From assembly GCA_002256245.1 (NCBI GenBank), contig NKIU01000008.1:53333-117332 (forward strand): a stretch of DNA of 64,000 bases, read 5' to 3'. The notes under the pieces were generated by a model, which worked only from the letters and a program-made list of their open reading frames with translations, was not told the DNA's origin and did not search any database. Below are positions 2,409 to 19,167 of this stretch, piece by piece. The DNA is from Pseudorhodobacter sp. PARRP1. GTDB lineage: Bacteria; Pseudomonadota; Alphaproteobacteria; Rhodobacterales; Rhodobacteraceae. Position 1 is the stretch's first letter; every line of letters starts with the position of its first letter. Both the position numbers and the translations under genes were made by a program.

Positions 2409-2427
2409 TCCTTTCAGGATCATAGAC

Positions 2428-3294
2428 ATGAGAAGTTCCCGCCTTTGGCGTGCCCTGCCGTGGAACGGTTTGGGGGCAGTGCCGTTTTTGCTGTTCGCGC
2501 TGCTGTTTCTACTGCTGCCCACCGCGAACATCGTGGCGGGGGCGTTTGTGGACAGTGACGGCGGCTTCACGCTGAAAAACATTTTCAATCTTTTTACGCC
2601 CGAGATCATGAATGCGTTCTGGCTGTCGATCCGGCTCAGTTTCACCTCGGCGCTGATCGGGTGCATCTTGGGCTTCGCGATTGCCTTGGCGGTGGTTTTG
2701 GGCGGCTTGCCCGGCTGGATACGCGGCATCGTGATGACGTTTTCCGGGGTGACTTCGAATTTTGCCGGGGTGCCGTTGGCGTTTGCCTATGTGGCGACCT
2801 TGGGCCGGGTTGGCTTTGTGACGCTTCTGTTGCGCGATTGGTTTGGCGTCAATATCTACGCTTTGGGCTTCAATATGATCAGCTTCTGGGGGCTGGTCGC
2901 GGCCTATGTGTTCTTCCAGATCCCCTTGATGGTGCTGATCATCACCCCCGCGATTGACGGGCTGAAGCGCGAGTGGCGCGAGGCGGCGGAAGTGCTGGGT
3001 GCCACCGGCGGGCAGTATTGGCGCATGGTGGCGCTGCCGGTGCTGGGGCCGTCGCTGCTGGGGACGCTGGCGCTTTTGTTCGCCAATGCCTTTGGCGCGG
3101 TGGCGACCGCGATTGCGTTGACGGGGTCGCTGTTGTCCATCGCCCCGATCCTGCTGTTCAACCAAATCCGTGGCGACGTGCTGCAAGACCCGCATCTGGG
3201 CTATGCCTTGGCCTTCGCGATGATCGTGATTACGGGCATTTCCAACGGGGTTTATGTGGTGATGCGCACGCGCGCCGAGCGGTGGATCAAATGA
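2428..3294 (+). CDS. ABC transporter permease
   Basis: Multiple TM segments, EAA motif (EAAEVLGA). Confidence 0.9.
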   Translation: MRSSRLWRALPWNGLGAVPFLLFALLFLLLPTANIVAGAFVDSDGGFTLKNIFNLFTPEIMNAFWLSIRLSFTSALIGCILGFAIALAVVLGGLPGWIRGIVMTFSGVTSNFAGVPLAFAYVATLGRVGFVTLLLRDWFGVNIYALGFNMISFWGLVAAYVFFQIPLMVLIITPAIDGLKREWREAAEVLGATGGQYWRMVALPVLGPSLLGTLALLFANAFGAVATAIALTGSLLSIAPILLFNQIRGDVLQDPHLGYALAFAMIVITGISNGVYVVMRTRAERWIK

Positions 3295-4073
3295 AGCGTA
3301 TCCTGTCTTGGGCGACCATCGGCTTTGCGGTGGTGTATTTCTTCCTGCCGCTGGTGGGGATGCTGGAATTCTCGCTGAAGATGCGGCGGGGGGAGTATTC
3401 GTTGGACGCTTACCGCTCCGTGATGGGCGATCCGCAGTTTCAGGCCACCTTTGGGTATTCGGTGCTGATGGCCTGCCTGACCATCGTGTTCGGCGTGTTG
3501 GTGGTGGTGCCGACGGTGTTCTGGGTGCGCCTGAAACTGCCGCGCCTGCGCCCGTTCATGGAGTTTATCACGCTGCTGCCGCTGGTTATTCCGCCCATCG
3601 TGATCGTGTTCGGCTATATCCGTTTGTTCAACACCTCCAGTTGGTTGCCGCTGACGGGCTCGGCTTTGGGCACCGATTTTCTGCTGATGTGCGGCTATGC
3701 GGTGCTGGCGCTGCCCTATATGTATCGCGCCGTCGATACCGGCCTTGCGGCGATTGATTTGGCGACGCTTACCGAGGCTGCGCAAAGCCTTGGCGCGGGG
3801 TGGATCACCGTGCTTGCCCGCGTGATCTTGCCGAATGTGCTGGTTGCGGTGCTGTCCGGCGCTTTCCTGACCTTTGCCATCGTGATTGGCGAGTATGTCT
3901 TTGCGGCGCTGCTGGATCGGCCTGCGTTTGGCCCCTATCTGGTCTGGGCGGGCGGCAACAAAGCCTACGAGCCTGCGGCTTTGGCAGTGATGACCTTTGC
4001 GCTGACCTGGGCCTGCATGATGCTGATTCAATTGGCGACCAAATTCTCTAAACATACAAGGATGCCACGCTAA
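3291..4073 (+). CDS. ABC transporter permease
   Basis: ATGA overlap at 3291; EAAQSLGA motif; hydrophobic. Confidence 0.88.
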   Translation: MKRILSWATIGFAVVYFFLPLVGMLEFSLKMRRGEYSLDAYRSVMGDPQFQATFGYSVLMACLTIVFGVLVVVPTVFWVRLKLPRLRPFMEFITLLPLVIPPIVIVFGYIRLFNTSSWLPLTGSALGTDFLLMCGYAVLALPYMYRAVDTGLAAIDLATLTEAAQSLGAGWITVLARVILPNVLVAVLSGAFLTFAIVIGEYVFAALLDRPAFGPYLVWAGGNKAYEPAALAVMTFALTWACMMLIQLATKFSKHTRMPR

Positions 4074-5376: not shown

Positions 5377-6441
5377 CTAAAACGCGCCGCGTGACAGCCA
5401 GCGGGCCAGCATCGGCCCCAGCAACAGCACCAGCAAGAACCGCGCCATATGCATCACCATCACAAACGCCACATCCACCGGGGTAGAAGCCGCGATGATG
5501 GCGATGGAATCCATGCCGCCGGGGCTGGTGGCCAGATAGGCCGTCAGCGGATCAACCCCGGCAAACTGCACCAGTGCCACAGCCGCCGCGCCGCAGACCG
5601 CGATCAGCACCAGAATTGACGCGAACACCCGCAGAAACGCCCGCCGCGCACCGCGGATTGTGGCGCGGGTAAAGCGCAATCCAATCGCCCAGCCGATGGC
5701 GGCATAGGTCAACGCCAGCAGCCAAGGCGGCAGATAAAGCGGCATCCACCCGGTGTGCGACAGCGCCATGCCGGTGAAGATCGGCAAAAGAAAGCTGCCT
5801 CCGGGCAGGCGCAGCCGCCCGCCTGCGAAGGCCAGCACCACCGCCAAAGCCACGGTTTGGGCGACGCCAAGCGCGGGCATGGCAGGAAACCAGATGATCT
5901 CGGGCGCAGGCCCCGCCGTCACGCCAAACAGCCGCGCAACGACAGTGGCCACCACCGCCACGCAGGCCACCCGCATATACTGCATGAAGGCCACCAGCCG
6001 CATATCCGCGCCATAAGCCCCCGACAGCAGCGTCATCGCGGCAGCAGCCCCGGGCGATGATCCCCAGATGGCGGTGGTGCCCGGCAGCGCGCCAGACCGC
6101 GCCAAAAGCCAGCCCAGCAGGGACGAGGCGAAGATGGTAAACAGCGTGCCTGCCACCACGATCGGCCAGTCTGCCGCCACCTCGGCCATCAGCGACAGCG
6201 GCAGCACCGAGGCCACCATCAGCCCGACCAGCCCCTGTGCGGCGGTCATCACAGGGGCAGGCAGGCTGACGCCATAGCCCTGCACCGCAAGGATAATCGC
6301 CGCGACCATCGGCCCGAGCAGCAAGGCGGCGGGCAGGTGCAGCAGCTCAAACCCGGCGGTGATCAGGGCCGACAGCAGCACCAGAACGCACCAGCGCAGC
6401 GCGCGGTTGGACGGGGATGGGGGCGGGGGCTGCGGTGACAA
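5377..6441 (-). CDS. AbrB-family (AidB regulator-type) duplicated membrane protein
   Basis: Two homologous hydrophobic halves with SSPGAAAAM and TSPGGMDSI motifs; TTG start at 6441 with AAGGA 6 nt upstream (ORF open to 6498). Confidence 0.8.
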   Translation of the reverse strand: MSPQPPPPSPSNRALRWCVLVLLSALITAGFELLHLPAALLLGPMVAAIILAVQGYGVSLPAPVMTAAQGLVGLMVASVLPLSLMAEVAADWPIVVAGTLFTIFASSLLGWLLARSGALPGTTAIWGSSPGAAAAMTLLSGAYGADMRLVAFMQYMRVACVAVVATVVARLFGVTAGPAPEIIWFPAMPALGVAQTVALAVVLAFAGGRLRLPGGSFLLPIFTGMALSHTGWMPLYLPPWLLALTYAAIGWAIGLRFTRATIRGARRAFLRVFASILVLIAVCGAAAVALVQFAGVDPLTAYLATSPGGMDSIAIIAASTPVDVAFVMVMHMARFLLVLLLGPMLARWLSRGAF

Positions 6442-6563
6442 GGTCTGTCCTTTGGGCAGGCGTTGCGCCTTCCTACGCCGCGCACTGGGCAAGGGCAATG
6501 CACTGGACAGCGCCCGCCCTGCCTGCCAGTTTGGCGAAAACCGCCCGCAGTCAAGGCCCTTCG

Positions 6564-6869
6564 ATGCAGCACACCGCCCCGCTTGATCCGGCAGCCGCGC
6601 ACAGCGAACGCTTTGCGATCTGCGGCGATGTGGGCGCTGCGGTCTTTGCGCCTTGGATCACGCGCCATGCGCGCCGTCTTGGCCTGCGCGGCGCGATTTT
6701 GCGCCATGATGCCACGCGGTTGGAGATGGTTGTCACCGGCCTGCCCGACCTGCTGGATGCGATGGCGCTGGCCTGTAGCCTTGGCCCACGCGAGGTGTTG
6801 GTGGACCGGATTGATCGCGCGCCGATGCCCTTGCAAAACGCGAACGAATTTGCTTCGACTGCCGCTTAA
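6564..6869 (+). CDS. Acylphosphatase-like small protein (degenerate active site)
   Basis: RFAICGDV...FAPWITRHARRLGLRG...LEMVVTG...MALACSLGP pattern follows the acylphosphatase fold, but VQGVGFR and the catalytic Asn are not conserved. Confidence 0.6.
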   Translation: MQHTAPLDPAAAHSERFAICGDVGAAVFAPWITRHARRLGLRGAILRHDATRLEMVVTGLPDLLDAMALACSLGPREVLVDRIDRAPMPLQNANEFASTAA

Positions 6870-6883
6870 CATATGATCATATG
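6870..6883. promoter_or_regulatory. Candidate repressor operator (perfect 14-bp palindrome)
   Basis: CATATGATCATATG, an AT-rich palindrome in GC-rich DNA, 117 bp upstream of the Rieske gene start. Confidence 0.55.
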
Positions 6884-6999
6884 CAGAAGGGGCGCTGATT
6901 TTTTGGGCATCTGCCGCGGTGCGGGCTGGGCTGCTTTGCAATAGCCCTTCCGCTATCGCAGCTTGGCATGACAAATCAGCGTCGGAATGTGGGGAAAAC

Positions 7000-7608
7000 A
7001 TGTCGATCTGGATTGCCAACGGTCTGTCGCAAGATTTGCCGCCGGGCGTTGTGATGGCCGGGGCTTGGCGGGGGGCCGAGCTTGCGATCTGGCGCAGCGC
7101 CTCGGGGCGGCTCTCGGCTTGGGGGGATCGCTGCCCGCATCGCGGAATGCGGCTGTCGCATGGGTTTGTGCGCGGTGAGACGCTGTCGTGCATCTATCAC
7201 GGTTGGGTTTATGGCAGCGACGGCGGTTGTCGGAAGATCCCCGCGCATCCGGCGATGGTGCCCCCTGCCACGATCAAGGCCGAGGTTTATCAATGCGTTG
7301 AGGCGGGTGGGGTGATCTGGGTCGCCCCTGCGGCTGTTGAAAGTGACGCGCCCGATCTGGCGGGGCTGACTCCGGTGCGCTCGGTCACTTTGCGCGCGGA
7401 TCGCGGCGCTTTGGCGCGGGTGCTGGCGGGGGCTGTGGCCGAGGGCGATCTGTGGCGGGTGCCTGCGCTGGGCGCGGTGCTGGCGCTGCAAGACCGGGCG
7501 GAAGGGCTTGGCCTGCACGCGCTTTGCCATGATGCTGCGCAGCGCGTGGCGGTCAGCCGCTGGTTGGACGGCGTGTTGCGGCTGGCGGAAGAGGGGGCTT
7601 TGGCATGA
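7000..7608 (+). CDS. Stand-alone Rieske [2Fe-2S] protein of a split Rieske oxygenase
   Basis: DRCPHRG and SCIYHGW give the complete Cys-x-His/Cys-x2-His ligand set; the roughly 90-aa C-terminus has no mononuclear-Fe motif and no reductase domain. Confidence 0.85.
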   Translation: MSIWIANGLSQDLPPGVVMAGAWRGAELAIWRSASGRLSAWGDRCPHRGMRLSHGFVRGETLSCIYHGWVYGSDGGCRKIPAHPAMVPPATIKAEVYQCVEAGGVIWVAPAAVESDAPDLAGLTPVRSVTLRADRGALARVLAGAVAEGDLWRVPALGAVLALQDRAEGLGLHALCHDAAQRVAVSRWLDGVLRLAEEGALA

Positions 7609-8447
7609 TTGCGGCGGCGGTGCTGAACGAATGGTATCCGGTGGCGATGGCGGCGATGGTCGGGCCGTGGCCGGGGCGGGCCACCACGCTTTTGGGCCAT
7701 GATATCAATGTGTTCTCGGAAGGCGACAAAATCATCGTGCGCGGCGCGGGCGGCGATCTGGCGGTGACGCTGGCCTATGGCCATGTCTGGGCCTGCCCCG
7801 GCACCCCGGCGCATGATCTGTTCCCGGTGCCAGAGGCCGCACAGCCGGGGCGGCGGCTGGTCGATTGCGGCGCGGTGCGGGTGAAATGCTCGCCGCTGCG
7901 GGCGGTCGAAAATTTCCTCGATATCGCGCATTTCCCGTTTGTGCATACCGACGTTTTGGGTGCTGAGCCGCACACCGAAGTGGGGCGATATGAGGTGCAA
8001 ATCCGCGAGGACAGCGACGAGGTTTGGGCGACCAAGGTGCATTTCTACCAACCCCAAGCCGCGAAATCGGCGGCGGGGGGGATTGTGACGGAATATATGT
8101 ATCGCGTCGCCGCCTCGACCTCGGCGGTGCTGTATAAAACCTGCCCGAACAACCCCGATGAATGGGACGTGATCGGGATTTTCGTGCAACCCCTGACCGA
8201 GGAGTTGTGCGAGGTCTGGCCGTGGATGGCGCTGTTCGATGACACCACGCCGCAGGCCGATCTGATCCAGTTTCAGCAGATGATCTTCCTGCAAGACCGC
8301 TCAATTCTGGAAAACCAGATCCCGCGGCTGTTGCCTTTGGACCCCGGCAAGGAGATTCCGACGCAGGCTGACCTCACATCAATCGCCTATCGCCGCTGGC
8401 TGAAACGCAAGGGGCTGACCTATGGCGCGCAGATGGTGGCGGCATGA
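7605..8447 (+). CDS. Rieske-less mononuclear-iron oxygenase subunit (VanA-type catalytic domain; NdmC-like N-demethylase)
   Basis: LNEWYPVA start and a vestigial Rieske region without Cys/His ligands; ENFLDIAHFPFVH (2-His motif plus bridging Asp), QDRSILENQ, YRRWL; 280 aa. Confidence 0.8.
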   Translation: MIAAAVLNEWYPVAMAAMVGPWPGRATTLLGHDINVFSEGDKIIVRGAGGDLAVTLAYGHVWACPGTPAHDLFPVPEAAQPGRRLVDCGAVRVKCSPLRAVENFLDIAHFPFVHTDVLGAEPHTEVGRYEVQIREDSDEVWATKVHFYQPQAAKSAAGGIVTEYMYRVAASTSAVLYKTCPNNPDEWDVIGIFVQPLTEELCEVWPWMALFDDTTPQADLIQFQQMIFLQDRSILENQIPRLLPLDPGKEIPTQADLTSIAYRRWLKRKGLTYGAQMVAA

Positions 8448-9100
8448 AACTGTATGATTATGTGCTAAGCGCCAGTTGCTACAAAATCCGCCTGATGGCG
8501 GCGCTGATGGGCGTCAAGCTGCAGACCGAGGCGGTGGATTTCCACCCCGGTCGCGCGCATCGCAGCGCGGATTTCCGCAGCCTGAACCCCGCCGGAACGC
8601 TGCCGGTGCTGGTGGACGGTGATCTGGTGCTGACCGAAAGCACGGCGATGCTGGTGTATCTGGCACGGCCCGAATGGCTGGGGCAGAGCGCGGCAGAAGC
8701 GGCGCAAGTCCAGCAATGGCTGGCATTTTCGGCACGGCTGGGGGCCAGTTTGGGCATGGCGCGGCTGCATGACATGCTGCTTTATCCCGGCGATATTGAT
8801 GCGTTCCGGCGCGCAGGCGTGGAGTGTCTGCGCGAGCTTGACGCGCATCTGACCGAGGCGCGCTTTGCGGGGCGCACCTATCTGGTGGGCGATACCCCCA
8901 CCATCGCCGACATCGCCTGTTTTCCCAACGTGGCACTTGCCCCCGATGGCGGCGTTGGCCTCGACGATTACCCGTCGATCCGCCTGTGGTCGCGCGCCAT
9001 CCGCGCCCTGCCGGGGTTCATCGAGATGCCCGGCATCCACCGCCTGCACGAGTTGAAACCCGCGCCCGAGGCCGTCCCACCGCTGGAGACGCTGCTATGA
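8444..9100 (+). CDS. Glutathione S-transferase family protein (NdmE-like by context)
   Basis: MKLYDYVLSASCYKIRL, GTLPVLVDG, LTESTAML, TIADIA motifs; ATGA-coupled on both sides. Confidence 0.85.
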   Translation: MKLYDYVLSASCYKIRLMAALMGVKLQTEAVDFHPGRAHRSADFRSLNPAGTLPVLVDGDLVLTESTAMLVYLARPEWLGQSAAEAAQVQQWLAFSARLGASLGMARLHDMLLYPGDIDAFRRAGVECLRELDAHLTEARFAGRTYLVGDTPTIADIACFPNVALAPDGGVGLDDYPSIRLWSRAIRALPGFIEMPGIHRLHELKPAPEAVPPLETLL

Positions 9101-10455
9101 GCATCCTTCTGAAAAACTGCGCGGCGATTGTGCCCTCGGCATCCGATCTGGTGCTGGCGGGGCAGGATATGCTGATCGAGGGCAAGCAGATTGCCGCCAT
9201 CGGCCCCAACCTGCACGCGCCGGGGGCCGAGGTGATCGACGCCTCTGGCTGGTTCATCTACCCCGGCTTGGTCAACACGCATCACCATTTCTTTCAATGC
9301 TTTGTGCGCAACCGCGCCGATCTGGATTGGACCAAAATGTCGGTGATCGAATGGCTGGACCTGATCTATCCGATCTTCTCACGCCTGACCGAGGATCAGT
9401 TTTACCACGCCTCTGTCGTGGCTCTGGCCGAGTTGATCAAACACGGCTGCACCACGGCGTTCGATCACCAATACAACTTTCCCCGCCACGCAGGCAGCCG
9501 CATCGTGGATCGCCAGTTTGAAGCCGCCGATCTGTTCGGCATCCGCTTTCATGCGGGCCGGGGCGGCAATACCCTGCCGAAATCCGAAGGCTCCACGATC
9601 CCCGATGAGATGCTGGAAACCACGGATGAATTCATCGCCGATTGCGCGCGGCTGATTGACGCCTACCACGATGCCAGCCCCTTCAGCATGCGGCAGGTGG
9701 TGGTCTCGCCCTGCCAGCCGGTGAATTGCTACAAGGATACCTTCGTGGAATCCGTGCGGCTGGCGCGTGACAAGGGCGTGTTCCTGCACACCCATGTCGG
9801 TGAGGGCGAAAGCCCGGTGATCGCGGCGCGCACCGGGCGCAGGACGGTGCAATACCTTGAGGAGATGGGATTTTCCGGCCCCGATACCTTCTATGCGCAT
9901 TGCTGGGAATTGAGCCATGCCGAACTGGCGCGCATGGCTGCGACCAACACAGGCGTGTCGCATTGCCCCGAGCCTGTGTATCTGGTGGGGGCCGAAGTCA
10001 CCGATATTCCAGCGATGCAGGCGATGGGCTTGCGGATTGGTCTGGGCTGCGATGGGGCTGCGTCGAATGACAATTCCAACCTGATGCACACCATCCATTC
10101 GGGTTACATGCTGCAATGTCTGGTCGCCAATACGCGCCAGCATCCCGTGCCGGAACCAAGCGCGTTCCTTGGCTATGCCACGCAGGGCGGCGCAGACCTT
10201 TTGGGCCGCCGCGACCTTGGCCGCCTTGCCCCCGGCATGGCGGCGGACCTGTTTGCCATCGACACCCGCCGTCTGGAATATGTCGGCACCCGGCACGATC
10301 CGGCCAGCCTGATCCCCAAGGTGGGCATCGGCCGCCCGGTTGATATGACGATGATCAACGGCCGTATCGTCTGGCGTGACGGCCAATTCCCCGGCCTTGA
10401 TGAGCGCGATCTGTTCACAAAAGCCGAAGCATCCTTCCACTGCATCCTGTCCTGA
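9097..10455 (+). CDS. Metal-dependent amidohydrolase, 8-oxoguanine/guanine-deaminase-like
   Basis: PGLVNTHHHFFQ, FHAGRG, HTHVGE, GLGCDG, PGMAAD motifs; ATG at 9097 overlaps the GST stop. Confidence 0.85.
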   Translation: MSILLKNCAAIVPSASDLVLAGQDMLIEGKQIAAIGPNLHAPGAEVIDASGWFIYPGLVNTHHHFFQCFVRNRADLDWTKMSVIEWLDLIYPIFSRLTEDQFYHASVVALAELIKHGCTTAFDHQYNFPRHAGSRIVDRQFEAADLFGIRFHAGRGGNTLPKSEGSTIPDEMLETTDEFIADCARLIDAYHDASPFSMRQVVVSPCQPVNCYKDTFVESVRLARDKGVFLHTHVGEGESPVIAARTGRRTVQYLEEMGFSGPDTFYAHCWELSHAELARMAATNTGVSHCPEPVYLVGAEVTDIPAMQAMGLRIGLGCDGAASNDNSNLMHTIHSGYMLQCLVANTRQHPVPEPSAFLGYATQGGADLLGRRDLGRLAPGMAADLFAIDTRRLEYVGTRHDPASLIPKVGIGRPVDMTMINGRIVWRDGQFPGLDERDLFTKAEASFHCILS

Positions 10456-10479
10456 TCCCACAATCCCAAAGGAAACCCG

Positions 10480-11571
10480 ATGACCCAAACCCGCCGCTCT
10501 TTCCTGAAAACCTCGCTTGCCGCCAGCACCGCCTTGGCTTTGCCGCTGCCCGCCTTTGCCGAAGGCGAAGTGCTGAATGTGGCCCTGATCGTGCCCTCGC
10601 CCGCAGCCGACGTCGGCTGGTCGCACACGCTGGAACTTGGCACCAAGGCGTTGGAGGCCGAATATGGTGACAAGGTCAAGGTCACGCTGCTGGAGAATAT
10701 CGCCGAAGGCCCGGATGCCGACCGGATTATGAACAAGACCGTGGCCGACGGGAACACCTTCCTGATCCTCGGCTCGTTTGGCTATATGAACGGCGGGTTG
10801 AAACTGGCCAAGGCGCATCCGGAAGTGTCGATCCTGCATGCCTCGGGCTATCAGGTGGCCCCGAATTTCTCGCCGTTTGGCGCGCGCTATTATCAGGGCA
10901 CTTACCTGATGGGGATGGCCGCGGCGTCCTTGTCAAAGTCGAAGAAACTCGGCTGCGTGGGGGCCTTTGCGATCCCCGAACTGATCACCTCGATCAACGC
11001 CTTCACCTTGGGGGCGCAATCGGTGGACCCAAGCATTGAGGTGTCGGTGGTCTGGGTGAACTCTTGGTTCGATCCGGCGTCGGAACAAGAGGCCGCCAAG
11101 GCGCTGCTGGCGCAGGGCTGCGATGTGGTGTTCTCGAACGCGCAGGACACGCCTTCGGTGGTGGCGGCGTGTGAAGAGGCCGGGGCCTATGTGTTCAACC
11201 TGAACTCGTCGATGAAAACCTATGCGCCGAAGAAATATCTGGGCGTGGTGGGCACCGACTGGGCGCCGTATTTCAAGGCATCCGTCGCCGCACATCTGGC
11301 GGGCACCTTTGCCGGGGCAAGCGCGTGGCTGGGCATGGCCGACAACTGCGTGTTTGTCGCCGACTGGAACCCCGATATTGCCCCCGATATGGTGGCGAAG
11401 ATCGAGGCCGTTCACGCCACCCTGATGGACGGCAGCTTCAGCCCGTTCACTGGGCCTTTGACCAACCAAGACGGGGCCGAGGCTGTCGCTGCGGGTGTCA
11501 CCTTGGGCGATGACGCGATCCTGTCGATGGATTGGCATGTCAAGGGCGTGACCACGCCGCTGCCGAAGTAA
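10480..11571 (+). CDS. BMP-family (purine/nucleoside) ABC substrate-binding protein
   Basis: Twin-arginine leader TRRSFLK; DVGWSH, SFGYM, VWVNSWFDP motifs of the BMP/PnrA family. Confidence 0.88.
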   Translation: MTQTRRSFLKTSLAASTALALPLPAFAEGEVLNVALIVPSPAADVGWSHTLELGTKALEAEYGDKVKVTLLENIAEGPDADRIMNKTVADGNTFLILGSFGYMNGGLKLAKAHPEVSILHASGYQVAPNFSPFGARYYQGTYLMGMAAASLSKSKKLGCVGAFAIPELITSINAFTLGAQSVDPSIEVSVVWVNSWFDPASEQEAAKALLAQGCDVVFSNAQDTPSVVAACEEAGAYVFNLNSSMKTYAPKKYLGVVGTDWAPYFKASVAAHLAGTFAGASAWLGMADNCVFVADWNPDIAPDMVAKIEAVHATLMDGSFSPFTGPLTNQDGAEAVAAGVTLGDDAILSMDWHVKGVTTPLPK

Positions 11572-11575
11572 ACCC

Positions 11576-13066
11576 ATGGCCGCGCTGTTGTCTTTGCAAG
11601 CTGTGTCAAAGCGTTACGGCGCGGTGCAGGCCAATGCCGGGATCGACCTTGTGGTTGATCCCGGCTCGATCCATGCCATTCTGGGCGAAAATGGCGCGGG
11701 CAAATCCACGCTGATGAAGCTGATCTATGGCGTGGAATCCCCCGATGCCGGGGTGATGCTGTGGAAGGGCCAGCCGGTGAACCTTGCCAGCCCAGCCGAG
11801 GCGCGGGCGCATGGCATCGGCATGGTGTTTCAGCATTTCTCGCTGTTTGAAACGCTAAGCGTGGTGCAGAACATCGCGCTGATCGTGCCGGGCAAGCAGG
11901 CAGACCTCGCCCGCCGCATCCGGGCCTTGGGCGCGGAATTTGGCCTTGAGGTTGACCCCGAGGCGATGGTGCACGCGCTGTCGGTGGGAGAGCGGCAACG
12001 GGTGGAAATCATCCGTTGCCTGCTGCTGAACCCCGAACTGCTTATTCTGGACGAGCCGACATCAGTGCTGCCGCCGCAAAGCGTGGCGCGGTTGTTTGAG
12101 ACACTCAGGGCCTTGCAGGCGCGCGGCATGGCGATCTTGTTCATCAGCCATAAACTGGAAGAAATCAAAGAGTTATGCGACACCGCCACCATCCTGCGGG
12201 GTGGCCGCGTATCGGGCCGTGTCGATCCGCGCGGCCATTCGGCCAAGGATCTGGCAACGCTGATGATCGGCCGCGCCATGCCGCCGCCGTTGCCTGCAAC
12301 CGCGCAGGACCCGGGCGAGGCGTGGCTGGAACTGGCGGGGCTCAGCTATCGCAACGATGATCCGTTTGGCGTCTCGCTGCATGATCTGTCGCTACAGGCG
12401 CGCAGCGGCGAGATCGTTGGCATCGCGGGCATTTCCGGCAATGGCCAGCAGGAGTTGGCGGCGCTGATCTCGGGTGAAATCGCAGCGCAGGGCGCGGGGT
12501 TGCGGATGATGGGGCAGGGCGTGGGGCGTCTGGGCGTCGCCGCGCGCCGCCGTCTGGGCTTTGCCTTTGTGCCGGAAGAACGTTTGGGCCGCGGCGCTGT
12601 GCCGGAAATGTCTTTGGCCGACAACGCCTTGCTGACCGCCCATCGCGCGGGGCTGGTGGCGCGCGGCTTTATCCGTCGCGCGCCCGAGCGGGCCTTCACC
12701 GCCGCCATTATCACCCGCTATGACGTGCGCACGCCGGGGCCAGAGGCCGAGGCGGCGGCGCTGTCGGGCGGCAATCTGCAAAAGTTCATCATGGGGCGCG
12801 AAATGATGCTGGACCCCAAACTGTTGTTGGTGTCGCAGCCGACATGGGGCGTGGATATTGGGGCGGCCACCGAAATCCGCCAGCGCCTGATCGCGATGCG
12901 CAATGCGGGCGCGGCCATTCTGGTGATTTCCGAGGAGTTGGAGGAGTTGTTCCAGATCTGCGACCGCCTGCATGTGCTGCACAAGGGCCATCTGTCGCCG
13001 TCCCTGCCTGTGGCCGAGACCAATGCCGAGGCCGTGGGGGCCTATATGATCGGAAGTGCGGCATGA
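11576..13066 (+). CDS. Nucleoside-type ABC ATP-binding protein (two ABC domains)
   Basis: GENGAGKST, LSVGERQRVEI, second domain with LSGGNLQK and QPTWGVD. Confidence 0.92.
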   Translation: MAALLSLQAVSKRYGAVQANAGIDLVVDPGSIHAILGENGAGKSTLMKLIYGVESPDAGVMLWKGQPVNLASPAEARAHGIGMVFQHFSLFETLSVVQNIALIVPGKQADLARRIRALGAEFGLEVDPEAMVHALSVGERQRVEIIRCLLLNPELLILDEPTSVLPPQSVARLFETLRALQARGMAILFISHKLEEIKELCDTATILRGGRVSGRVDPRGHSAKDLATLMIGRAMPPPLPATAQDPGEAWLELAGLSYRNDDPFGVSLHDLSLQARSGEIVGIAGISGNGQQELAALISGEIAAQGAGLRMMGQGVGRLGVAARRRLGFAFVPEERLGRGAVPEMSLADNALLTAHRAGLVARGFIRRAPERAFTAAIITRYDVRTPGPEAEAAALSGGNLQKFIMGREMMLDPKLLLVSQPTWGVDIGAATEIRQRLIAMRNAGAAILVISEELEELFQICDRLHVLHKGHLSPSLPVAETNAEAVGAYMIGSAA

Positions 13067-14133
13067 GGATCAGCTTTGTCCGCCGGGATCACGCCTCGCG
13101 CCCCGCCATGCTGCTGGCCCCGGTGGTGGCCTTTGCCTGCGCGATTGTGGCGAGCGTGATCCTGTTCACCGCCTTGGGCAAAGCCCCCGGCCAAGCCTTG
13201 TATTCGCTGCTGCTGGAGCCGTTTCTGACGTGGTATAACTTTTCCGAAGTCTTGCTGAAAATGGCCCCGCTGCTGCTGATTGCCCAAGGGCTTGCCATCG
13301 GTTTTCGCGCCAATGTGTTCAACATCGGGGCCGAGGGGCAGTTGATTATCGGAGCCATCGCGGCTTCGGCTTTACCGGTCTGGTATCCGCAGGGCGACAG
13401 CGCTTTGATGCTGCCTGCGATGCTGGTGATGGGGGCAGGGGCGGGGATGGCTTGGGCCGCGATTGCCGCCATGTTCCGCACAAGGTTCAATGCCAATGAG
13501 ATTCTGGTGACGCTGATGCTGTCGCTGATCGCCGCGCAAGTGCTGAACTATCTGCTGCTGGGCCCGTGGAAAGACCCGCATGGCTTCAACTTTCCGCAAA
13601 GCGTGATGTTTCCCGATGCCGCCCTGCTGCCGATCCTGCTGCCGGGCACGCGGGTGAATATCTCGCTTTTGTTCGCGCTGGTGGCAAGCGTGTTGGCCTA
13701 TGTGCTGATGCGCCACCGCTTTGCCGGGTTTCAACTGCTGGTGGGTGGGCTTGCCCCCCGCGCGGCTCGCTATGCCGGTTTCAGTGAGGCCCGTGCCATT
13801 TGGCTAAGCCTGCTTTTGGGTGGGCTTGCGGCAGGGCTGGCGGGGGCTGCGGAGGTGGCGGGGCCGCTGGGGCAGTTGCAACGCTCGGTTTCCCTTGGCT
13901 ACGGCTATTCCGCGATCATTGTGGCTTACTTGGGCGGGTTGAACCCTTTGGGCATTGTGGTGTCGGCCTTTGTGATGTCGGTGATTTATATCGGCGGCGA
14001 CAATGCGATGGTGTCGGCGGATTTGCCGGTGGCCGCCGTCTGGGTGTTTCAGGGCCTGCTGCTGTGCTTTTACCTCGCCGGCCTGACCTTCATCCGTCAC
14101 CGTGTCAGCTTTAGTCGCAAGGCCCTGCCATGA
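13063..14133 (+). CDS. Nucleoside-type ABC permease
   Basis: FNIGAEGQ, NEILVTLML, GYGYSAIIVA motifs; ATGA overlap. Confidence 0.9.
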   Translation: MRISFVRRDHASRPAMLLAPVVAFACAIVASVILFTALGKAPGQALYSLLLEPFLTWYNFSEVLLKMAPLLLIAQGLAIGFRANVFNIGAEGQLIIGAIAASALPVWYPQGDSALMLPAMLVMGAGAGMAWAAIAAMFRTRFNANEILVTLMLSLIAAQVLNYLLLGPWKDPHGFNFPQSVMFPDAALLPILLPGTRVNISLLFALVASVLAYVLMRHRFAGFQLLVGGLAPRAARYAGFSEARAIWLSLLLGGLAAGLAGAAEVAGPLGQLQRSVSLGYGYSAIIVAYLGGLNPLGIVVSAFVMSVIYIGGDNAMVSADLPVAAVWVFQGLLLCFYLAGLTFIRHRVSFSRKALP

Positions 14134-15041
14134 ACGCTGTTGATTTCATTCTGGCGGGTATGCTGGCCGCCGCCACGCCGATGTTGCTGGCGGCCTTGGG
14201 CGAGATGGTGGTGGAGCGATCCGGCGTGTTGAACCTTGGGCTGGAGGGGATGATGGCCCTGGGTGCGGCTTTGGGGTTTATCACCACCTACAGCACGGGC
14301 AGCCATGCCTTGGGCTTTGTGGTGGCGGCGTTGGGCGGGGCGGCGCTGTCGCTGCTGTTTGCGCTGATCGTGCTGGGGTTTGTCGCCAATCAGGTGGCGG
14401 CGGGGCTGGCGATCGGGATTTTGGGCACCGGGCTGTCGTCGCTGTTTGGCAAGAATTTTGAAAGCCTGACGATTGACGGTTTGCCGAAGCTGGCGCTGCC
14501 GGGGCTGTCTGATCTGCCGGTGGTGGGGGTGTTGTTTGTGCAGGATGCGGTGGTCTGGGCCACCGCTGTGCTGGCGCTGGCGATCTGGGCGGTGATGACC
14601 CATTCGAAACTTGGCCTGATCATCCGCGCGGTGGGCGAGAACCCGCATGCGGCCCGCGCAATTGGCTTTGGGGTGCTGCGGGTGCGCTGCGGCGCGATTG
14701 CGTTTGGCGGCGCGCTTGCGGGCATCGCCGGGGCTTATGCGTCAACGGTTTACACGCCGCTGTGGGCCGATGGCATGATCGCCGGGCGCGGCTGGATCGC
14801 GCTGGCGCTGGTGGTGTTTGGCACCTGGATGACGGGCCGGGTGGTGTTTGGCGCGGTGCTGTTTGGTGCGTTGTCGCTGGGCGAGTTGACCACGCAAGCG
14901 GCGGGGGTGAACATCCCCTCGCAACTGTTGGCTTGCGTGCCCTATGTCGTGACGATTTTGATGCTGGCGGTGATTTCCTCGAACCGCAGGCGGATGCGGC
15001 TGAACACGATTGCCTCACTCGGCCAGCCGTTCGAGCGTTGA
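14130..15041 (+). CDS. Nucleoside-type ABC permease
   Basis: ERSGVLNLGLEGMM, RAVGENP, GRGWIALALV motifs. Confidence 0.9.
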   Translation: MNAVDFILAGMLAAATPMLLAALGEMVVERSGVLNLGLEGMMALGAALGFITTYSTGSHALGFVVAALGGAALSLLFALIVLGFVANQVAAGLAIGILGTGLSSLFGKNFESLTIDGLPKLALPGLSDLPVVGVLFVQDAVVWATAVLALAIWAVMTHSKLGLIIRAVGENPHAARAIGFGVLRVRCGAIAFGGALAGIAGAYASTVYTPLWADGMIAGRGWIALALVVFGTWMTGRVVFGAVLFGALSLGELTTQAAGVNIPSQLLACVPYVVTILMLAVISSNRRRMRLNTIASLGQPFER

Positions 15042-15170: not shown

Positions 15171-15818
15171 CTATTCGAAGGGTTCGTAGTGCGGGTTCGC
15201 TGTGGGCGGGGCTTTGGCCGCTTGGCGGGCGAGGATTTCGACAAAGCTGCGTCCGGTCTTGATCTCGGCGTGCAGCACCACTTGGGCTGCGGCGCGGGCA
15301 TCTTCTCCGGCGTCATGGTGGTGGAACTGCAGCGACAGCGCGGTTTTCAGATGGCCCAAACCGTGGCCGCCACGGCCCTTGAACTCGGGCCAGGCGCGGC
15401 GGGCGATGGTGACGCTATCGACCCAGTGCAGGCTGGGCACATCGAGGCCATGCCAGCCGCAAGCCGCCGCCACCGCGCGTTCGTCAAAGCGCGAGTGTTG
15501 CACCATGGGTTGCTGCGCCATCAGGGGCGCAAGGGCTGCGATCACTTCGGGAAACAGCGGGGCGTCGCGCACCATCGCCGCGTCAATGCCATGCAGTTGG
15601 GTGTTGAAGGGCGAGAACGCCTCTGCGGGGTTTACCAGCAGGCTGAAGTTGTCGATCTGCCCCCAGTCATCGACGCAGGCAAAGCCCATCTGGCAGATGC
15701 TATGCGCGTTGCGGTTGGCGGTTTCGACATCAAAAGCGATGAAGCGATAGGGCGGGCGCAGGCGTTCTGGCAGCAGCGGGTGGGGCAGCAGCGGGTGGGG
15801 CGGCAGCACGGGCGTCAA
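15171..15818 (-). CDS. DEDDh 3'-5' exonuclease (DnaQ/epsilon-like)
   Basis: FDVET, HSRFD, DSVTIAR, HHDAGEDA motifs; TTG start overlaps the uraH stop. Confidence 0.82.
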   Translation of the reverse strand: MTPVLPPHPLLPHPLLPERLRPPYRFIAFDVETANRNAHSICQMGFACVDDWGQIDNFSLLVNPAEAFSPFNTQLHGIDAAMVRDAPLFPEVIAALAPLMAQQPMVQHSRFDERAVAAACGWHGLDVPSLHWVDSVTIARRAWPEFKGRGGHGLGHLKTALSLQFHHHDAGEDARAAAQVVLHAEIKTGRSFVEILARQAAKAPPTANPHYEPFE

Positions 15819-16168
15819 CTGCCGCGATAGGTCGAATAGGCGAAGGGCGAGATCAGCAGCGGCACATGGTAATGTGCCTCGGCATCCGCCACGCCGAAGC
15901 GGATCGGGATTTCATCCAGAAACAGCACCTCGGCACTGGTCTGACCCGTGCTGCGCAGGTAGTTGCCCGCGCAAAACACCAGCTCATAGCTGCCCGCCGT
16001 CAGCGCCTTGCCTTCCAGCATGGGCGCATCGGTGCGGCCATCGGCGTTGGTCACGGTCTCGGCAATCTTCTTGTGGCTGTTGCCGCCGACCCGGTAGAGC
16101 ATGATCTTCACCCCCGCCGCAGGCTTGCCGCGCGCCGTATCCAGCACATGCGTTGTCAACTTGCCCAT
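15815..16168 (-). CDS. uraH: 5-hydroxyisourate hydrolase (transthyretin-like)
   Basis: LTTHVLDT, TNADGR, HYHVPLL and C-terminal YRGS signature. Confidence 0.95.
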   Translation of the reverse strand: MGKLTTHVLDTARGKPAAGVKIMLYRVGGNSHKKIAETVTNADGRTDAPMLEGKALTAGSYELVFCAGNYLRSTGQTSAEVLFLDEIPIRFGVADAEAHYHVPLLISPFAYSTYRGS

Positions 16169-16323
16169 CATCGCCCCCGTTTTCTGCCGCGCGTATTTCT
16201 GCCAACCTAGCCAAACTTGCCCCTTGCCGCAGCCCCTGCCAAGCCGCAAAACTCCTTTCGGGATTATTTGATAAAACCTTTAGGATCTTCGATATAGTTT
16301 CGCCGAAGAAGAAGGAGAGTTTG

Positions 16324-17739
16324 ATGCCCCGCTACCCCCGTGATTTCCGTGGCTACGGCCCCGATGCCCCTGATGCGGCCTGGCCGGGCGGTGCCAAGAT
16401 CGCGGTGTCGGTGGTGTTGAACTACGAAGAGGGCGGCGAGAACAACATCCTGCACGGCGATGGCAGCTCGGAAGCGTTTTTGTCCGATATTGCAGGGGCT
16501 GCGCCTTGGCCCGGTCAGCGCCATTGGAACATGGAATCGATCTACGATTACGGCGCGCGCGCGGGCTTCTGGCGGTTGCACCGGCTGTTCACCGGCATGG
16601 AGATTCCGGTGACGATCTACGGTGTGTCCACCGCTTTGGCGCGCAACCCCGAGCAGGTGGCCGCGATGAAGGCCGCCGGGTGGGAGATCGCGTCGCACGG
16701 GCTGAAATGGGTCGATCACCGCGACATGCCCCTTGCAGAGGAGCGTGCCCAGATCGCAGAATCCATCCGCCTGCACACCGAAGTCGTAGGCACACCCCCG
16801 CGCGGCTGGTACACCGGGCGCTGCTCGGTCAATACCGTCGATCTGACCGCCGAGACCGGGCAATTCGACTGGATTTCCGACACTTACGACGACGATCTGC
16901 CCTATTGGCGCGAGGTCGGCGCGCGTGATCAGTTGGTGATCCCCTACACGCTGGAAGCCAACGACATGCGCTTTGCCACAGCGCCGGGTTACATCGAGGG
17001 CCAGCAGTTCTTCCAATACCTGAAAGACAGCTTTGACACCCTTTATGCCGAGGGCTGCGAGGGCCGCGCGAAGATGTTCTCGATCGGTCTGCACTGCCGC
17101 CTGATCGGACGCCCGGGCAAAATCGCAGGGCTCAAGCGCTTCCTCGACTATGCAAAATCCCACAATGACGTGTGGTTCCCCCGCCGGATCGAGATCGCCG
17201 AACATTGGGCAAAAACCCATCCGCACAAACGCTTCGCACGGCCTTCTCAGATGACACGCGAAGCTTTCGTTGCGGCTTATGGTCCCATTTTCGAACATTC
17301 ACCCTGGATCGCCGACCGCGCCTTCGATCTGGAACTTGGCCCCGCCCATGACAGCGCCACAGGCCTGCACAACGCGCTCGCCCGTATCTTCCGCTCAGCC
17401 AGCCCCGCAGAACGCTTGGGCGTGCTGCAAGCCCACCCCGATCTTGCCGGCAAACTCGCCGCCGCCAAACAACTGACCGCGGCATCCAGTGCCGAGCAGG
17501 CCAGCGCAGCCCTCGATGCGCTGAGCGATGCCGAGCGTGCCGCGTTCCAAAGCCTGAACGCGGCTTATGTCGCCAAACACGGGTTCCCCTTCATCATCGC
17601 CGTGCGCGATAACACCAAGGCCAGCATCCTTGCGGCTTTTCACGCCCGCATCGCGCATGACACCGAAACCGAACTGCAAACCGCCTGCATGCAGGTCGAA
17701 CGTATCGCCGAACTCCGCCTGAAGGACATCCTGCCATGA
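16324..17739 (+). CDS. puuE: Allantoinase PuuE fused to C-terminal OHCU decarboxylase (UraD)
   Basis: LNYEEGGE, ESIYDYGARAGFWR, SHGLKW, SIGLHCRLIGRPG followed by FEHSPWIA, AHPDLAG, SSAEQ, FPFIIAV, ERIAELRL; AAGGAG RBS. Confidence 0.92.
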   Translation: MPRYPRDFRGYGPDAPDAAWPGGAKIAVSVVLNYEEGGENNILHGDGSSEAFLSDIAGAAPWPGQRHWNMESIYDYGARAGFWRLHRLFTGMEIPVTIYGVSTALARNPEQVAAMKAAGWEIASHGLKWVDHRDMPLAEERAQIAESIRLHTEVVGTPPRGWYTGRCSVNTVDLTAETGQFDWISDTYDDDLPYWREVGARDQLVIPYTLEANDMRFATAPGYIEGQQFFQYLKDSFDTLYAEGCEGRAKMFSIGLHCRLIGRPGKIAGLKRFLDYAKSHNDVWFPRRIEIAEHWAKTHPHKRFARPSQMTREAFVAAYGPIFEHSPWIADRAFDLELGPAHDSATGLHNALARIFRSASPAERLGVLQAHPDLAGKLAAAKQLTAASSAEQASAALDALSDAERAAFQSLNAAYVAKHGFPFIIAVRDNTKASILAAFHARIAHDTETELQTACMQVERIAELRLKDILP

Positions 17740-18578
17740 CCGCTTACTACTCCCCCCCCGGTGGGTTGCCCGCGCAAACCACGCTGATGACCGGCCGCGC
17801 GGTGTTCACCGACGCCTATGCCTTCATCCCGAAGGGCTGCTTTTCCGATATCCTCACCAGTTATCTGCCGGGCTGGCGCGGCACCAAACTGTGGCTGATC
17901 GCGCGGCCGATGTCGGGGTTTTCCGAAACCTTCAGCCAATATGTGATGGAGGTGCAGCCGGGCGGCGGCTCTGACGCCCCCGATGCCGAAACCGGGGCCG
18001 AGCATTTCCTGTTTGTCACCGGCGGCCTGATCACCCTCACCATCGACGGTGTCGGCTATGAGATGGACGCAGGCGGCTACGCCTTCATCCCGCCGGGCGC
18101 GAAATGGCAGCTTCTGGCCGAAGGCACCGAACCCGCCCGCTTCCACTGGCTCCGCAAACTGTATGAACCCGCGCCGGGCGTCGCGATCCCGCCCGCCTTC
18201 GTGATCAACGAAAAGGATGTCGCACTCAGCATGATGCCCGACACAAACGGCGTCTGGGGCACCACCCGCTTTGTCGATCCGACCGACGTGCGCTACGACG
18301 CCCATGTCAACATCGTCACCTTCCAGCCCGGCGGCGTGATCCCGTTTGAAGAAACCCATGTGATGGAGCACGGGCTTTACGTGCTGGAAGGCAAAGCGGT
18401 TTACAAACTGAACAAGGATTGGGTCGAGGTTGAGGCCGGCGATTTCATGTGGCTGCGCGCCTATTGCCCGCAAGCCTGCTACGCCGCAGGGCCGGGCCCT
18501 TTCCGCTACCTTCTCTACAAGGATGTGAACCGCCACGCCAACCTGCGCGGGCCCGGCGGCTATCGCCCGACGCGTTGA
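17736..18578 (+). CDS. allE: (S)-ureidoglycine aminohydrolase-like bicupin (AllE family)
   Basis: Bicupin with ETFSQY, ETHVMEHGLYVLEG, LRAYCPQ; ATGA-coupled to puuE. Confidence 0.85.
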   Translation: MTAYYSPPGGLPAQTTLMTGRAVFTDAYAFIPKGCFSDILTSYLPGWRGTKLWLIARPMSGFSETFSQYVMEVQPGGGSDAPDAETGAEHFLFVTGGLITLTIDGVGYEMDAGGYAFIPPGAKWQLLAEGTEPARFHWLRKLYEPAPGVAIPPAFVINEKDVALSMMPDTNGVWGTTRFVDPTDVRYDAHVNIVTFQPGGVIPFEETHVMEHGLYVLEGKAVYKLNKDWVEVEAGDFMWLRAYCPQACYAAGPGPFRYLLYKDVNRHANLRGPGGYRPTR

Positions 18579-18599
18579 AGCAAATTTGACTAAAATTTG

Positions 18600-18654
18600 T
18601 TTCATCCGTTTCTAAATATCCCACGGGGAGCGCGAGGGGTGTGAAACCCCTCGC
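18600..18654 (+). repeat. TCATC-N8-9-AAATATCC dispersed repeat, copy b
   Basis: tttcatccgtttctaaatatcccacggggagcgcgagggg-tgtgaaa-cccctcgc, ending in a GC hairpin. Confidence 0.7.
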
Positions 18655-18678
18655 TTCGCCGCAAGCCCAAGGCGCACC

Positions 18679-19167
18679 ATGCAGACGATCCACCCCGAAC
18701 CCCTCACCGCCGCCGCCTTCGCCGCGTTCGGCGATGTGCTGGACGCCACAGGCGATTTCCGCCTGATCAATGACGGCATGTGCCAACGCCACCACGACCG
18801 CGCCCGCCTCGATTTCGCGCCCGAGGTCAGCCCCGACAACCGCGCAGGCCTGTCGATCTTTAACGCCGTCCCGCGCGGGCTTCCCTACAGCTTTGATCTG
18901 ATCGAGCGTCACCCCGAAGGCAGCCAGGCCTTTATCCCGATGACCCAGCATCCGTTTCTGGTGATTGTGGCTGCCAGCCCCAATGACAAACCCCGCGCCT
19001 TCCTGACCAATGGCGCGCAAGCGATCAACCTGCACCGCGGTATCTGGCACGGCGTACTTACCCCACTGCACGCCCCCGGCCTGTTCGCCGTGGTGGACCG
19101 TATCGGCCCATCAGCCAACCTTGAAGAACACCGCTATCTGCAACCCTGGACAGTCACGCCCGCGTAG
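18679..19167 (+). CDS. allA: Ureidoglycolate lyase
   Basis: EPLTAAAFAAFGDV, ERHPEGSQAFIP, INLHRGIWH motifs; purine cluster context. Confidence 0.9.
   Translation: MQTIHPEPLTAAAFAAFGDVLDATGDFRLINDGMCQRHHDRARLDFAPEVSPDNRAGLSIFNAVPRGLPYSFDLIERHPEGSQAFIPMTQHPFLVIVAASPNDKPRAFLTNGAQAINLHRGIWHGVLTPLHAPGLFAVVDRIGPSANLEEHRYLQPWTVTPA

Follow-up and report, generated by a model that had tools for sequence, protein, structure and literature searches.

The purine demethylase NdmCDE of Pseudomonas putida CBB5 is a glutathione-S-transferase (GST)-dependent enzyme that removes the N7-methyl group of 7-methylxanthine, and NdmC, the sole characterized member of its family, is specific for this substrate; the system was described in 2013 (Summers et al.), and a 2015 review lists ndmCDE homologs without known function in Klebsiella, Sinorhizobium and Mesorhizobium (PMC4408171). 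The NdmH amidohydrolases comprise three characterized homologs of AtzB, namely poNdmH from Pleomorphomonas oryzae, hsNdmH from Haliea and rbNdmH from a Rhodobacteraceae bacterium, which convert N2,N2-dimethylguanine and water to xanthine and dimethylamine with a kcat/KM of 1e5-1e6 M-1 s-1, are 150-3600 times better on this compound than on guanine and are inactive on the nucleoside (PMC13054789, Drexler et al., ACS Catal. 2026). They are promiscuous, with about six substrates each and -NH2, -NHR and -NR2 as leaving groups, and for all three N2,N2-dimethylguanine is the only natural compound besides guanine that is fully turned over; the paper is silent on gene neighbors and names genomic context as future work (PMC13054789). 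The two questions, the role of NdmCDE homologs outside caffeine degraders (standing since 2013) and the physiological setting of NdmH, meet in the locus described here, an operon at positions 6564-15041 of a 64,000-nucleotide stretch of Pseudorhodobacter sp. PARRP1 DNA (contig NKIU01000008.1, positions 53,333 to 117,332), which we call the window. We propose, with a probability of about 0.58, that this nine-gene accessory operon scavenges free methylated guanine bases and converts them to xanthine.

An earlier note on this DNA described eight same-strand genes joined by ATGA overlaps or by gaps of at most 24 nt and lying beside uraH, puuE-uraD, allE and allA, and our gene calls and domain assignments agree with that description. 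The eight plus-strand open reading frames (ORFs) between 7000 and 15041 have the codon bias typical of real genes, and at five of their junctions the start and stop codons overlap as ATGA, the other two being gaps of 24 nt and 4 nt; the GST gene is translationally coupled by ATGA on both sides. The operon has nine genes, the first being an ORF for an acylphosphatase-fold protein at 6564-6869, 5' of the Rieske gene. A G+C-rich hairpin lies 3' of the last gene. The features of the operon are as follows:

6564-6869, plus strand: degenerate acylphosphatase-fold protein, 101 aa (PF00708, AlphaFold2 fold, synteny)
6870-6883, no strand: 14-bp exact palindrome CATATGATCATATG, candidate operator, between the acylphosphatase-like and Rieske genes
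7000-7608, plus strand: stand-alone Rieske [2Fe-2S] protein, 202 aa (PF00355)
7605-8447, plus strand: NdmC-like non-heme-iron oxygenase subunit, 280 aa (PF19112 VanA_C, without a Rieske domain)
8444-9100, plus strand: NdmE-like GST-fold protein, 218 aa (GST_N/GST_C)
9097-10455, plus strand: predicted NdmH amidohydrolase, 452 aa (Amidohydro_1; identity to characterized NdmH)
10480-11571, plus strand: BMP-family periplasmic binding protein (PF02608, Bmp)
11576-13066, plus strand: ATP-binding cassette (ABC) transporter ATPase with two nucleotide-binding domains (PF00005 twice)
13063-14133, plus strand: ABC transporter permease 1 (PF02653, BPD_transp_2; ATGA overlap)
14130-15041, plus strand: ABC transporter permease 2, the last gene of the operon (PF02653, BPD_transp_2; ATGA overlap)

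The function that we propose would begin with free methylguanines left over when tRNA, rRNA and caps are turned over. A BMP binding protein exported by the twin-arginine translocation (Tat) pathway, together with the ABC transporter, would import the free base and not the nucleoside. NdmH would then hydrolyze the C2 (di)methylamino group, turning N2,N2-dimethylguanine into xanthine and dimethylamine, as is predicted from close homology to the characterized enzymes. Judging from family membership, a split Rieske monooxygenase would be assembled from the Rieske protein, the iron subunit that resembles NdmC and the GST that resembles NdmE, and the acylphosphatase-fold protein probably also takes part in it. 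This enzyme would hydroxylate a methyl group on a ring nitrogen (by analogy with NdmC, that on N7), the methyl leaving as formaldehyde; ring-methylated guanines, or methylxanthines made by NdmH, would in this way also end as xanthine or guanine. Candidate substrates of this branch are 7-methylguanine, N2,7-dimethylguanine and N2,N2,7-trimethylguanine, and the electrons would come from a PDR/VanB-type reductase encoded elsewhere. Xanthine would pass through xanthine dehydrogenase (XDH) and PuuD to the adjacent uraH, uraD-puuE, allE and allA products; XdhB, XdhC, PuuD and a GuaD-like gene are found elsewhere in the genome. The general idea of the earlier note, a route from methylpurine to xanthine, thus holds up, given the NdmH homology, the NdmCDE-like proteins, the purine-base transporter and the presence of a complete downstream route in the genome.

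To determine how widely this gene set is conserved, we searched one-genome-per-species contigs with the oxygenase, which gave more than 570 relatives, and compared the best 80 loci; a second sample of 78 loci was found with the distant hsNdmH as the query. The first sample shows this gene set in unchanged order in about 70 of its 80 loci, and the full operon is present in 73-74 of the 78 loci of the second, including the gammaproteobacterial Granulosicoccaceae. In 65 of the 80 loci and in 61 of the 78, the gene immediately 5' of the Rieske gene encodes the acylphosphatase-like ortholog, and the ABC ATPase gene is syntenic in all complete loci. Altogether, about 140 species show synteny of the entire operon, which is conserved in well over a hundred alphaproteobacterial species. 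Because the same order recurs in most loci of both samples, the gene set lies far beyond chance, and the cross-genome co-occurrence that the earlier note had named as a check was found. The operon is held by Rhodobacterales and Hyphomicrobiales, and in Rhizobium, Mesorhizobium and Pleomorphomonas it is often plasmid-borne. It is also a patchy trait: of 121 sampled genera of the family to which the window belongs, only 5 have the oxygenase at E <= 1e-80. The window belongs to a Cypionkella genome (Paracoccaceae) in an assembly that goes back to an algal-culture metagenome, and its oxygenase is 98% identical to that of Cypionkella sinensis KCTC 52039.

The amidohydrolase of the window is 78.6% identical to rbNdmH, 74.5% to poNdmH, 55.6% to hsNdmH and 57.4% to AtzB, where the NdmH reference sequences were taken from the supplement of PMC13054789 and the characterized enzymes are 57-78% identical to one another. 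The CQNN signature that separates NdmH from AtzB, which has SSII instead (PMC13054789), is present in the window protein as C206, Q207, N210 and N158 (an SPCQPVNC stretch; C213, Q214, N217 and N165 in poNdmH). Of these, the two that were checked, C206 and N158, do not vary among 70 orthologs, the corresponding residues of 8-oxoguanine deaminases being C-S-S-M, and the catalytic Q67, E236, H268 and D319 (Q74, E243, H275 and D326 in poNdmH) are equally invariant. The residues that grip the 2-amino-4-oxopyrimidine (isocytosine) core and the catalytic residues, mapped on the VCZ structure (PMC10481359), are all kept, and five pocket positions differ from those of 8-oxoguanine deaminases, the paralog encoded in this genome among them, in all 70 orthologs, with F88, M159, L168 and F210 replaced. 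By its identity values and these residues the window amidohydrolase is assigned as an NdmH, with the predicted reaction N2,N2-dimethylguanine + H2O -> xanthine + dimethylamine. It shares the CQNN signature, the catalytic Gln/Glu/His/Asp and the metal ligands with the published enzymes, and no difference was detected at the level of the enzyme; the difference is one of context, since the paper treats NdmH as a lone enzyme and here it is one of nine operon genes. In two Pleomorphomonas species the operon amidohydrolase is 91-92% identical to poNdmH, and hence the characterized poNdmH is itself a product of this operon in Pleomorphomonas.

A plain 8-oxoguanine deaminase, the nearest NCBIfam family, was considered for this gene and rejected: the protein scores 370 bits with NF006055 against a cut-off of 532, its pocket differs, and a true paralog is encoded elsewhere. 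Compared with 8-oxoguanine deaminase (Pa0142, PDB 3hpa; VCZ, 7ww2), the window NdmH belongs to the same cog0402 amidohydrolase clade and shares the isocytosine-core residues, but it falls below the NCBIfam cut-off and its pocket residues are replaced. The true 8-oxoguanine deaminase of this genome lies outside the window on contig C24 (C24:189991-191265; locus L086, 17941-19275, minus strand), scores 691 bits with NF006055 and is 37% identical to NdmH. It is encoded about 25 kb from XdhB/XdhC (C24:164132-167351), with a second BMP-type binding protein at C24:173500-174480, and the C24 region looks like the main purine-catabolism region of the genome.

The transporter fits a base rather than a nucleoside. 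The BMP protein has a Tat-type RRSFLK leader, although its TAT_signal match is sub-threshold (20.9 bits vs 22.7), and its closest solved relatives are AtzT (6pi5; 1e-81, 40% identity) and a Brucella BMP protein (3s99; 2.3e-78). AtzT co-purified with guanine, which it binds with a KD of 110 nM, and it binds ammeline at 360 nM; the Brucella protein was modelled with adenine. Five of the seven guanine contacts of AtzT are identical in the window protein (S97, F98, E165, W194 and N218), and the two that are changed are Y45, replaced by Trp with stacking kept, and N220, replaced by Asp with a one-residue insertion. The window protein thus shares with AtzT and the Brucella protein the stacking aromatics and the Ser/Phe/Glu/Asn guanine contacts, and differs from AtzT at the Asn220 position, where the Asp and the insertion may suit a modified base. 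From this comparison we place it in the purine-base subgroup (AtzT / 3s99, cluster B-I), which gives its predicted ligand class. A base importer also fits because NdmH is inactive on the nucleoside. The earlier note had called the four transporter genes a BMP nucleoside ABC system; the closest solved relatives bind guanine or adenine bases.

The relatives of these two proteins raise a different explanation, in which the natural substrate is another N-heterocycle, such as a natural s-triazine like ammeline, a pterin, 7-deazaguanine or a plant or algal purine alkaloid, and the activity on dimethylguanine is a proxy. The nearest named relatives of the hydrolase and of the binding protein are AtzB (57%) and AtzT (40%), and NdmH promiscuity and the affinity of AtzT for ammeline point in the same direction. 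On the other hand, N2,N2-dimethylguanine alone among natural compounds other than guanine is fully turned over by the three NdmHs, and at high efficiency; the residues that recognize the isocytosine core are invariant; and the operon is old and has a wide distribution in habitats that are not polluted. We consider such a substrate very unlikely. For both AtzB and AtzT, which are encoded on the atrazine plasmid of Pseudomonas sp. ADP, the nearest characterized relatives belong to this operon, and the atrazine pathway may have drawn its hydrolase and its transporter alike from an operon for methylguanines. If the proposed function is true, the atrazine enzyme AtzB, and possibly AtzT, would trace back to such an operon.

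For the second half of the operon, a plasmid cluster of Klebsiella pneumoniae was used as a proxy for P. putida CBB5 NdmCDE. The NdmB of this cluster gives 623 bits to the solved NdmB 6icl and the C-terminus of its NdmD matches 6icm_D, and because these two proteins match solved P. putida proteins we judge the Klebsiella cluster a sound proxy for the CBB5 system. Against it the oxygenase, Rieske protein and GST of the window (the trio) are 42.6%, 34% and 46.8% identical, and the clusters of P. fulva and of S. meliloti pSymA give similar values. The oxygenase identity to the Klebsiella NdmC-like protein extends over 272 aa, and identities to the S. meliloti copies are 41-44%; the GST is 41% identical to the S. 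meliloti NdmE-like protein. The best solved relatives of the oxygenase are SxtDIOX/SxtT (6.7e-23). A search for names in a large protein collection returned only generic "ring-hydroxylating dioxygenase" labels. The Rieske protein is 34-40% identical to residues ~9-190 of 585-588-aa NdmD-like fusions and is closer to the NdmD N-terminus than to the Rieske domains of NdmA/B, which suggests that it is the counterpart of the N-terminal ~190 aa of NdmD. Its cluster ligands C45, H47, C64 and H67 are invariant in 31 orthologs. By homology the trio consists of true, full-length homologs of NdmC, of the NdmD Rieske part and of NdmE. No ndmA/B is present in this genome, and the earlier reading of the trio as NdmCDE-like without ndmA/B is confirmed by full-length homology at 34-47% identity to the Klebsiella cluster.

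The iron subunit has the motif D-IA-H-FPFV-H (DxxHxxxxH), and its residues 1-90 are a vestigial Rieske stub without CxH/CxxH ligands, all four being gone. The AlphaFold2 model of the Rieske protein (predicted local distance difference test score, pLDDT, 95.1) contains a Rieske domain and a C-terminal alpha/beta domain, and in Foldseek the whole model aligns over 240-290 columns with full-length alpha3 oxygenases (GxtA/SxtT, KshA, DdmC, NdmA) at a TM-score (TMq) of 0.6-0.73. We infer that the Rieske protein and the oxygenase are complementary degenerate copies of one alpha3-type oxygenase: one copy would keep the cluster with a cut-down catalytic domain, and the other would keep the iron site with a dead Rieske stub. 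The system has in common with NdmCDE a Rieske-less VanA_C catalytic subunit, a Rieske cluster on a separate polypeptide, an obligatory-looking GST-fold partner and a purine-related context. It differs in that the Rieske part is a free 202-aa protein, whereas NdmD fuses it to an FMN/NADH/plant-ferredoxin reductase; in that an acylphosphatase-fold protein is added, which is absent from the fused clusters; and in that NdmH and a BMP ABC importer accompany the trio, with no ndmA/B. On these grounds we regard the trio as a new architectural variant of a known system.

The acylphosphatase-fold protein matches PF00708 with 31.4 bits (cut-off 22.5). Its AlphaFold2 model (pLDDT 84.8) has a beta-alpha-beta-beta-alpha-beta fold, and the top Foldseek match is acylphosphatase 1w2i (TMq 0.75, rmsd, root-mean-square deviation, 1.9). 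The catalytic phosphate-binding loop of acylphosphatases is GxVQGVxFR and ends in an Arg. Alignment inspection shows the corresponding loop as G-D-V-G-A-A-V-F-A-P-W, with no Arg after the invariant Phe in 33 of 33 orthologs, and for this reason the protein is probably not a phosphatase. We also considered whether it is a lost piece of NdmD and rejected this, as a hidden Markov model of 65 orthologs found nothing in NdmD-like proteins or in the fused clusters.

The electron donor of the Rieske protein is likely to be encoded at a distance. All-against-all ORF clustering of the 80 loci revealed no reductase or regulator conserved near the operon. The only gene of the genome that resembles the C-terminal part of NdmD (a PDR/VanB-type reductase) is C10:374209-375201, within a dimethylamine monooxygenase / trimethylamine N-oxide (TMAO) cluster, and its product is the sole in-genome candidate donor for the orphan Rieske protein. 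This cluster (C10:~371000-379000; locus L085, 5183-12991) encodes a TMAO permease, a GcvT-like TMAO-demethylase-type protein, a DmmA-family protein and the VanB-type reductase, and it could consume the dimethylamine released by NdmH. A sister operon on the Paracoccus alcaliphilus plasmid NZ_CP067125 (locus L167, 3091-13730) has the same parts, including the Rieske, GST and acylphosphatase-like proteins, with an oxygenase 44% and a BMP binding protein 47% identical to those of the window. In addition it has a divergently oriented LysR gene and a free-standing reductase of the PDR/VanB type that is 39-42% identical to the C-terminal half of NdmD, which by homology indicates the expected kind of electron donor. 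Among 80 relatives of the sister oxygenase (loci L168-L247) a GST is found in 75 loci, a free Rieske protein in 62, a BMP binding protein in 60 and the acylphosphatase-like protein in 54, and a linked reductase in only 8, so that a borrowed reductase would be the rule for the unfused form. The unfused oxygenase can also be seen as a natural experiment in the dismantling of Rieske oxygenases: its Rieske subunit stands alone, a GST would act as scaffold, an acylphosphatase-fold subunit would be added and the reductase would be borrowed.

In the sister operon an amidohydrolase of the 8-oxoguanine-deaminase type replaces NdmH and is 75% identical to the true 8-oxoguanine deaminase of the PARRP1 genome; this operon may be a differently specialized member of the same pathway family. 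About 50 of the 80 sister-oxygenase loci have a match to one of two guanine-type amidohydrolase queries (over at least half the length, often at just 24-38% identity). The taxa are alphaproteobacteria (Kaistia, Bradyrhizobium, Methylobacterium, Acetobacter, Gluconobacter and others), NdmC-like oxygenases are combined in them with varied guanine-type amidohydrolases, and many have the amidohydrolase directly 5' of a second oxygenase paralog.

The partner in the sister operon, and the genes that follow the operon in the window, bear on the chief competing explanation, which is that the oxygenase is a molybdenum-independent C8 ring hydroxylase like HpxD, converting xanthine to urate or guanine-type bases to their 8-oxo forms and feeding the adjacent urate genes. 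Those genes are as follows:

15171-15818, minus strand: RNase T-like exonuclease
15815-16249, minus strand: uraH, 5-hydroxyisourate (HIU) hydrolase (PF00576)
~16153-17739, plus strand: puuE-uraD fusion, polysaccharide-deacetylase/OHCU-decarboxylase, with a PuuE-type allantoinase (PF01522+PF09349)
17736-18578, plus strand: allE bicupin, ureidoglycine aminohydrolase type (Cupin_2/Cupin_3)
18679-19167, plus strand: allA, ureidoglycolate lyase (PF04115)

HpxDE of Klebsiella and Pantoea, a molybdenum-independent hypoxanthine/xanthine hydroxylase, is likewise a VanA_C-family Rieske oxygenase of purine catabolism that hydroxylates the purine ring, and the N7-methyl group and C8 lie side by side on a purine. 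The adjacency of uraH, uraD and puuE would suit this explanation, and the pairing of the trio with an 8-oxoguanine-deaminase-type enzyme in the sister operon lends it some weight. However, the oxygenase is only 28-29% identical to HpxD, over 76-78% of the query, compared with 42-44% to NdmC-like proteins. HpxD carries a Rieske domain of its own, is served by the reductase HpxE and lacks a GST partner, whereas the window subunit is without a Rieske domain; the GST partner and the split Rieske are derived traits common to the trio and NdmCDE, not HpxDE. XDH is already present in the genome, and the adjacency of the urate genes is not conserved: among the loci compared they adjoin the operon only here and in C. 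sinensis (locus L006), and in neither the other Cypionkella species nor any other taxon. Thus the earlier note was right that ring-degradation genes lie beside the operon, but the urate-to-glyoxylate genes at 15815-19167 are a downstream pathway outside the conserved unit. Finally, related clusters often hold several Rieske-less oxygenase paralogs that share one Rieske/GST set, as NdmA, NdmB and NdmC share NdmD, and for this reason demethylation at specific positions is favored over ring hydroxylation. We therefore regard C8 hydroxylation as quite unlikely.

Several findings weigh against a methylguanine-scavenging operon. NdmH alone converts N2,N2-dimethylguanine to xanthine and does not need the oxygenase. 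In the oxygenase family only P. putida NdmC has been assayed, and the window protein is 43% identical to its Klebsiella proxy. The operon contains no reductase, regulator or formaldehyde-handling gene, and the 8-oxoguanine-deaminase-type partner of the sister operon fits ring C8 hydroxylation as well. In five species the transporter and the trio are kept and NdmH is absent from the whole genome, and in Halieaceae NdmH is kept without the trio. Neither 7-methylguanine nor trimethylguanine occurs in the searchable text of either NdmH paper, and 7-methylguanine is missing from their supplement text as well; the compound-list figures lie outside that text. The search for expression data gave nothing usable, as the only RNA run from the same sample is polyA-selected and contains next to no sampled words of the window.

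As a few lineages have NdmH but no trio and others the trio but no NdmH, the two are separable, which argues for parallel or partly overlapping roles and not for an obligate two-step chain. Because NdmH suffices to take N2-methylated guanine to xanthine, the oxygenase must add something, and its removal of a ring N-methyl group is, by analogy with NdmC, the most economical reading. The earlier note had arranged the two activities in series, and a main function in which 7-methylguanine is first deaminated to 7-methylxanthine by the amidohydrolase and this product is then stripped of its N7-methyl by the NdmCDE-like enzyme, yielding xanthine, has several points in its favor: NdmC is specific for 7-methylxanthine (PMC4408171), NdmH accepts all three kinds of amino leaving group in a pocket wider than that of 8-oxoguanine deaminases, and 7-methylguanine is an abundant natural base. 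Yet the activity demonstrated for NdmH is on N2,N2-dimethylguanine, and guanine, which has the same -NH2 leaving group as 7-methylguanine, is the far poorer substrate by the factor of 150-3600 given above; the searchable text of the NdmH papers is without 7-methylguanine; and five species run the trio without any NdmH. The purine deaminase acting on 7-methylguanine and the fixed order of deamination before N7-demethylation were thus not upheld, and as the main function this sequence of steps is unlikely.

The five species without NdmH could instead be explained if the oxygenase removed the exocyclic N2-methyl groups, taking dimethylguanine to methylguanine and guanine as an oxygen-dependent alternative to NdmH, with a guanine deaminase to finish. 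Such an activity would duplicate that of NdmH in the roughly 140 species with both enzymes, and it is without precedent in the Ndm family, whose members attack ring N-methyl groups; we regard it as extremely improbable.

Returning to methylguanine scavenging, we put forward a fuller version tentatively, as something short of an even bet. It states that an undescribed and widespread pathway recycles RNA-derived N2-methylguanine (m2G), N2,N2-dimethylguanine (m2,2G), 7-methylguanine (m7G) and the trimethylated m2,2,7G cap base as a nitrogen source, with NdmH acting on the exocyclic methyls and a three-way-split NdmCDE-type N-demethylase on the ring methyls; the demethylase would consist of two complementary degenerate paralogs, a GST scaffold, a non-catalytic acylphosphatase-fold subunit and a borrowed VanB-type reductase. 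The searchable literature yielded no account of this operon as a pathway, and none of bacterial 7-methylguanine catabolism or of Rieske enzymes linked to methylguanine. The claim of the earlier note that the pathway is undescribed holds, within that literature, for the operon as a pathway, but not for its parts, as NdmH (2026) and the rhizobial NdmCDE homologs (2013, PMC4408171) are published. If the proposed function is true, NdmCDE-like enzymes gain a natural, non-caffeine role and NdmH gains a physiological context. Modified RNA bases, which animals excrete unused, would then be a real source of nitrogen for alphaproteobacteria that live in soil, in fresh water, in the sea or in association with plants or algae.

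We also examined the leader of the operon. The element CATATGATCATATG is a perfect AT-rich palindrome of 14 bp with one exact copy in the 4.35-Mb, 65% G+C genome, and in view of this single copy a regulon for it was rejected. A search of 6300-7200 with Rfam gave a chance-level match only, and a riboswitch or known RNA was rejected; scans for sigma-70 promoters and intrinsic terminators at both ends of the operon gave nothing above shuffled sequences. A near-identical site is present in another Cypionkella (locus L165), and in Rhizobiales a conserved AT-rich TGC-N11-GCA motif occupies the same position. From its sequence and position we propose the palindrome as a candidate operator.

Two further loci carry relatives of the operon's proteins. 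The ndm-type caffeine island on plasmid p1 of the known caffeine degrader Paraburkholderia caffeinilytica (locus L166) encodes an orphan BMP-family binding protein that is 34% identical to that of the window, which hints that this family of binding proteins serves methylpurines more widely. In a Halieaceae bacterium (locus L088, 3452-20053) an hsNdmH-type gene lies inside a purine-catabolism island together with two further amidohydrolases, adenosine-deaminase-family and adenine-deaminase-family genes, a HupE/UreJ metal transporter, a 2OG-Fe(II) oxygenase, PuuD, a GuaD-like gene, XdhC and XDH, and the island may have a broader role in the salvage of "modified purine" compounds.

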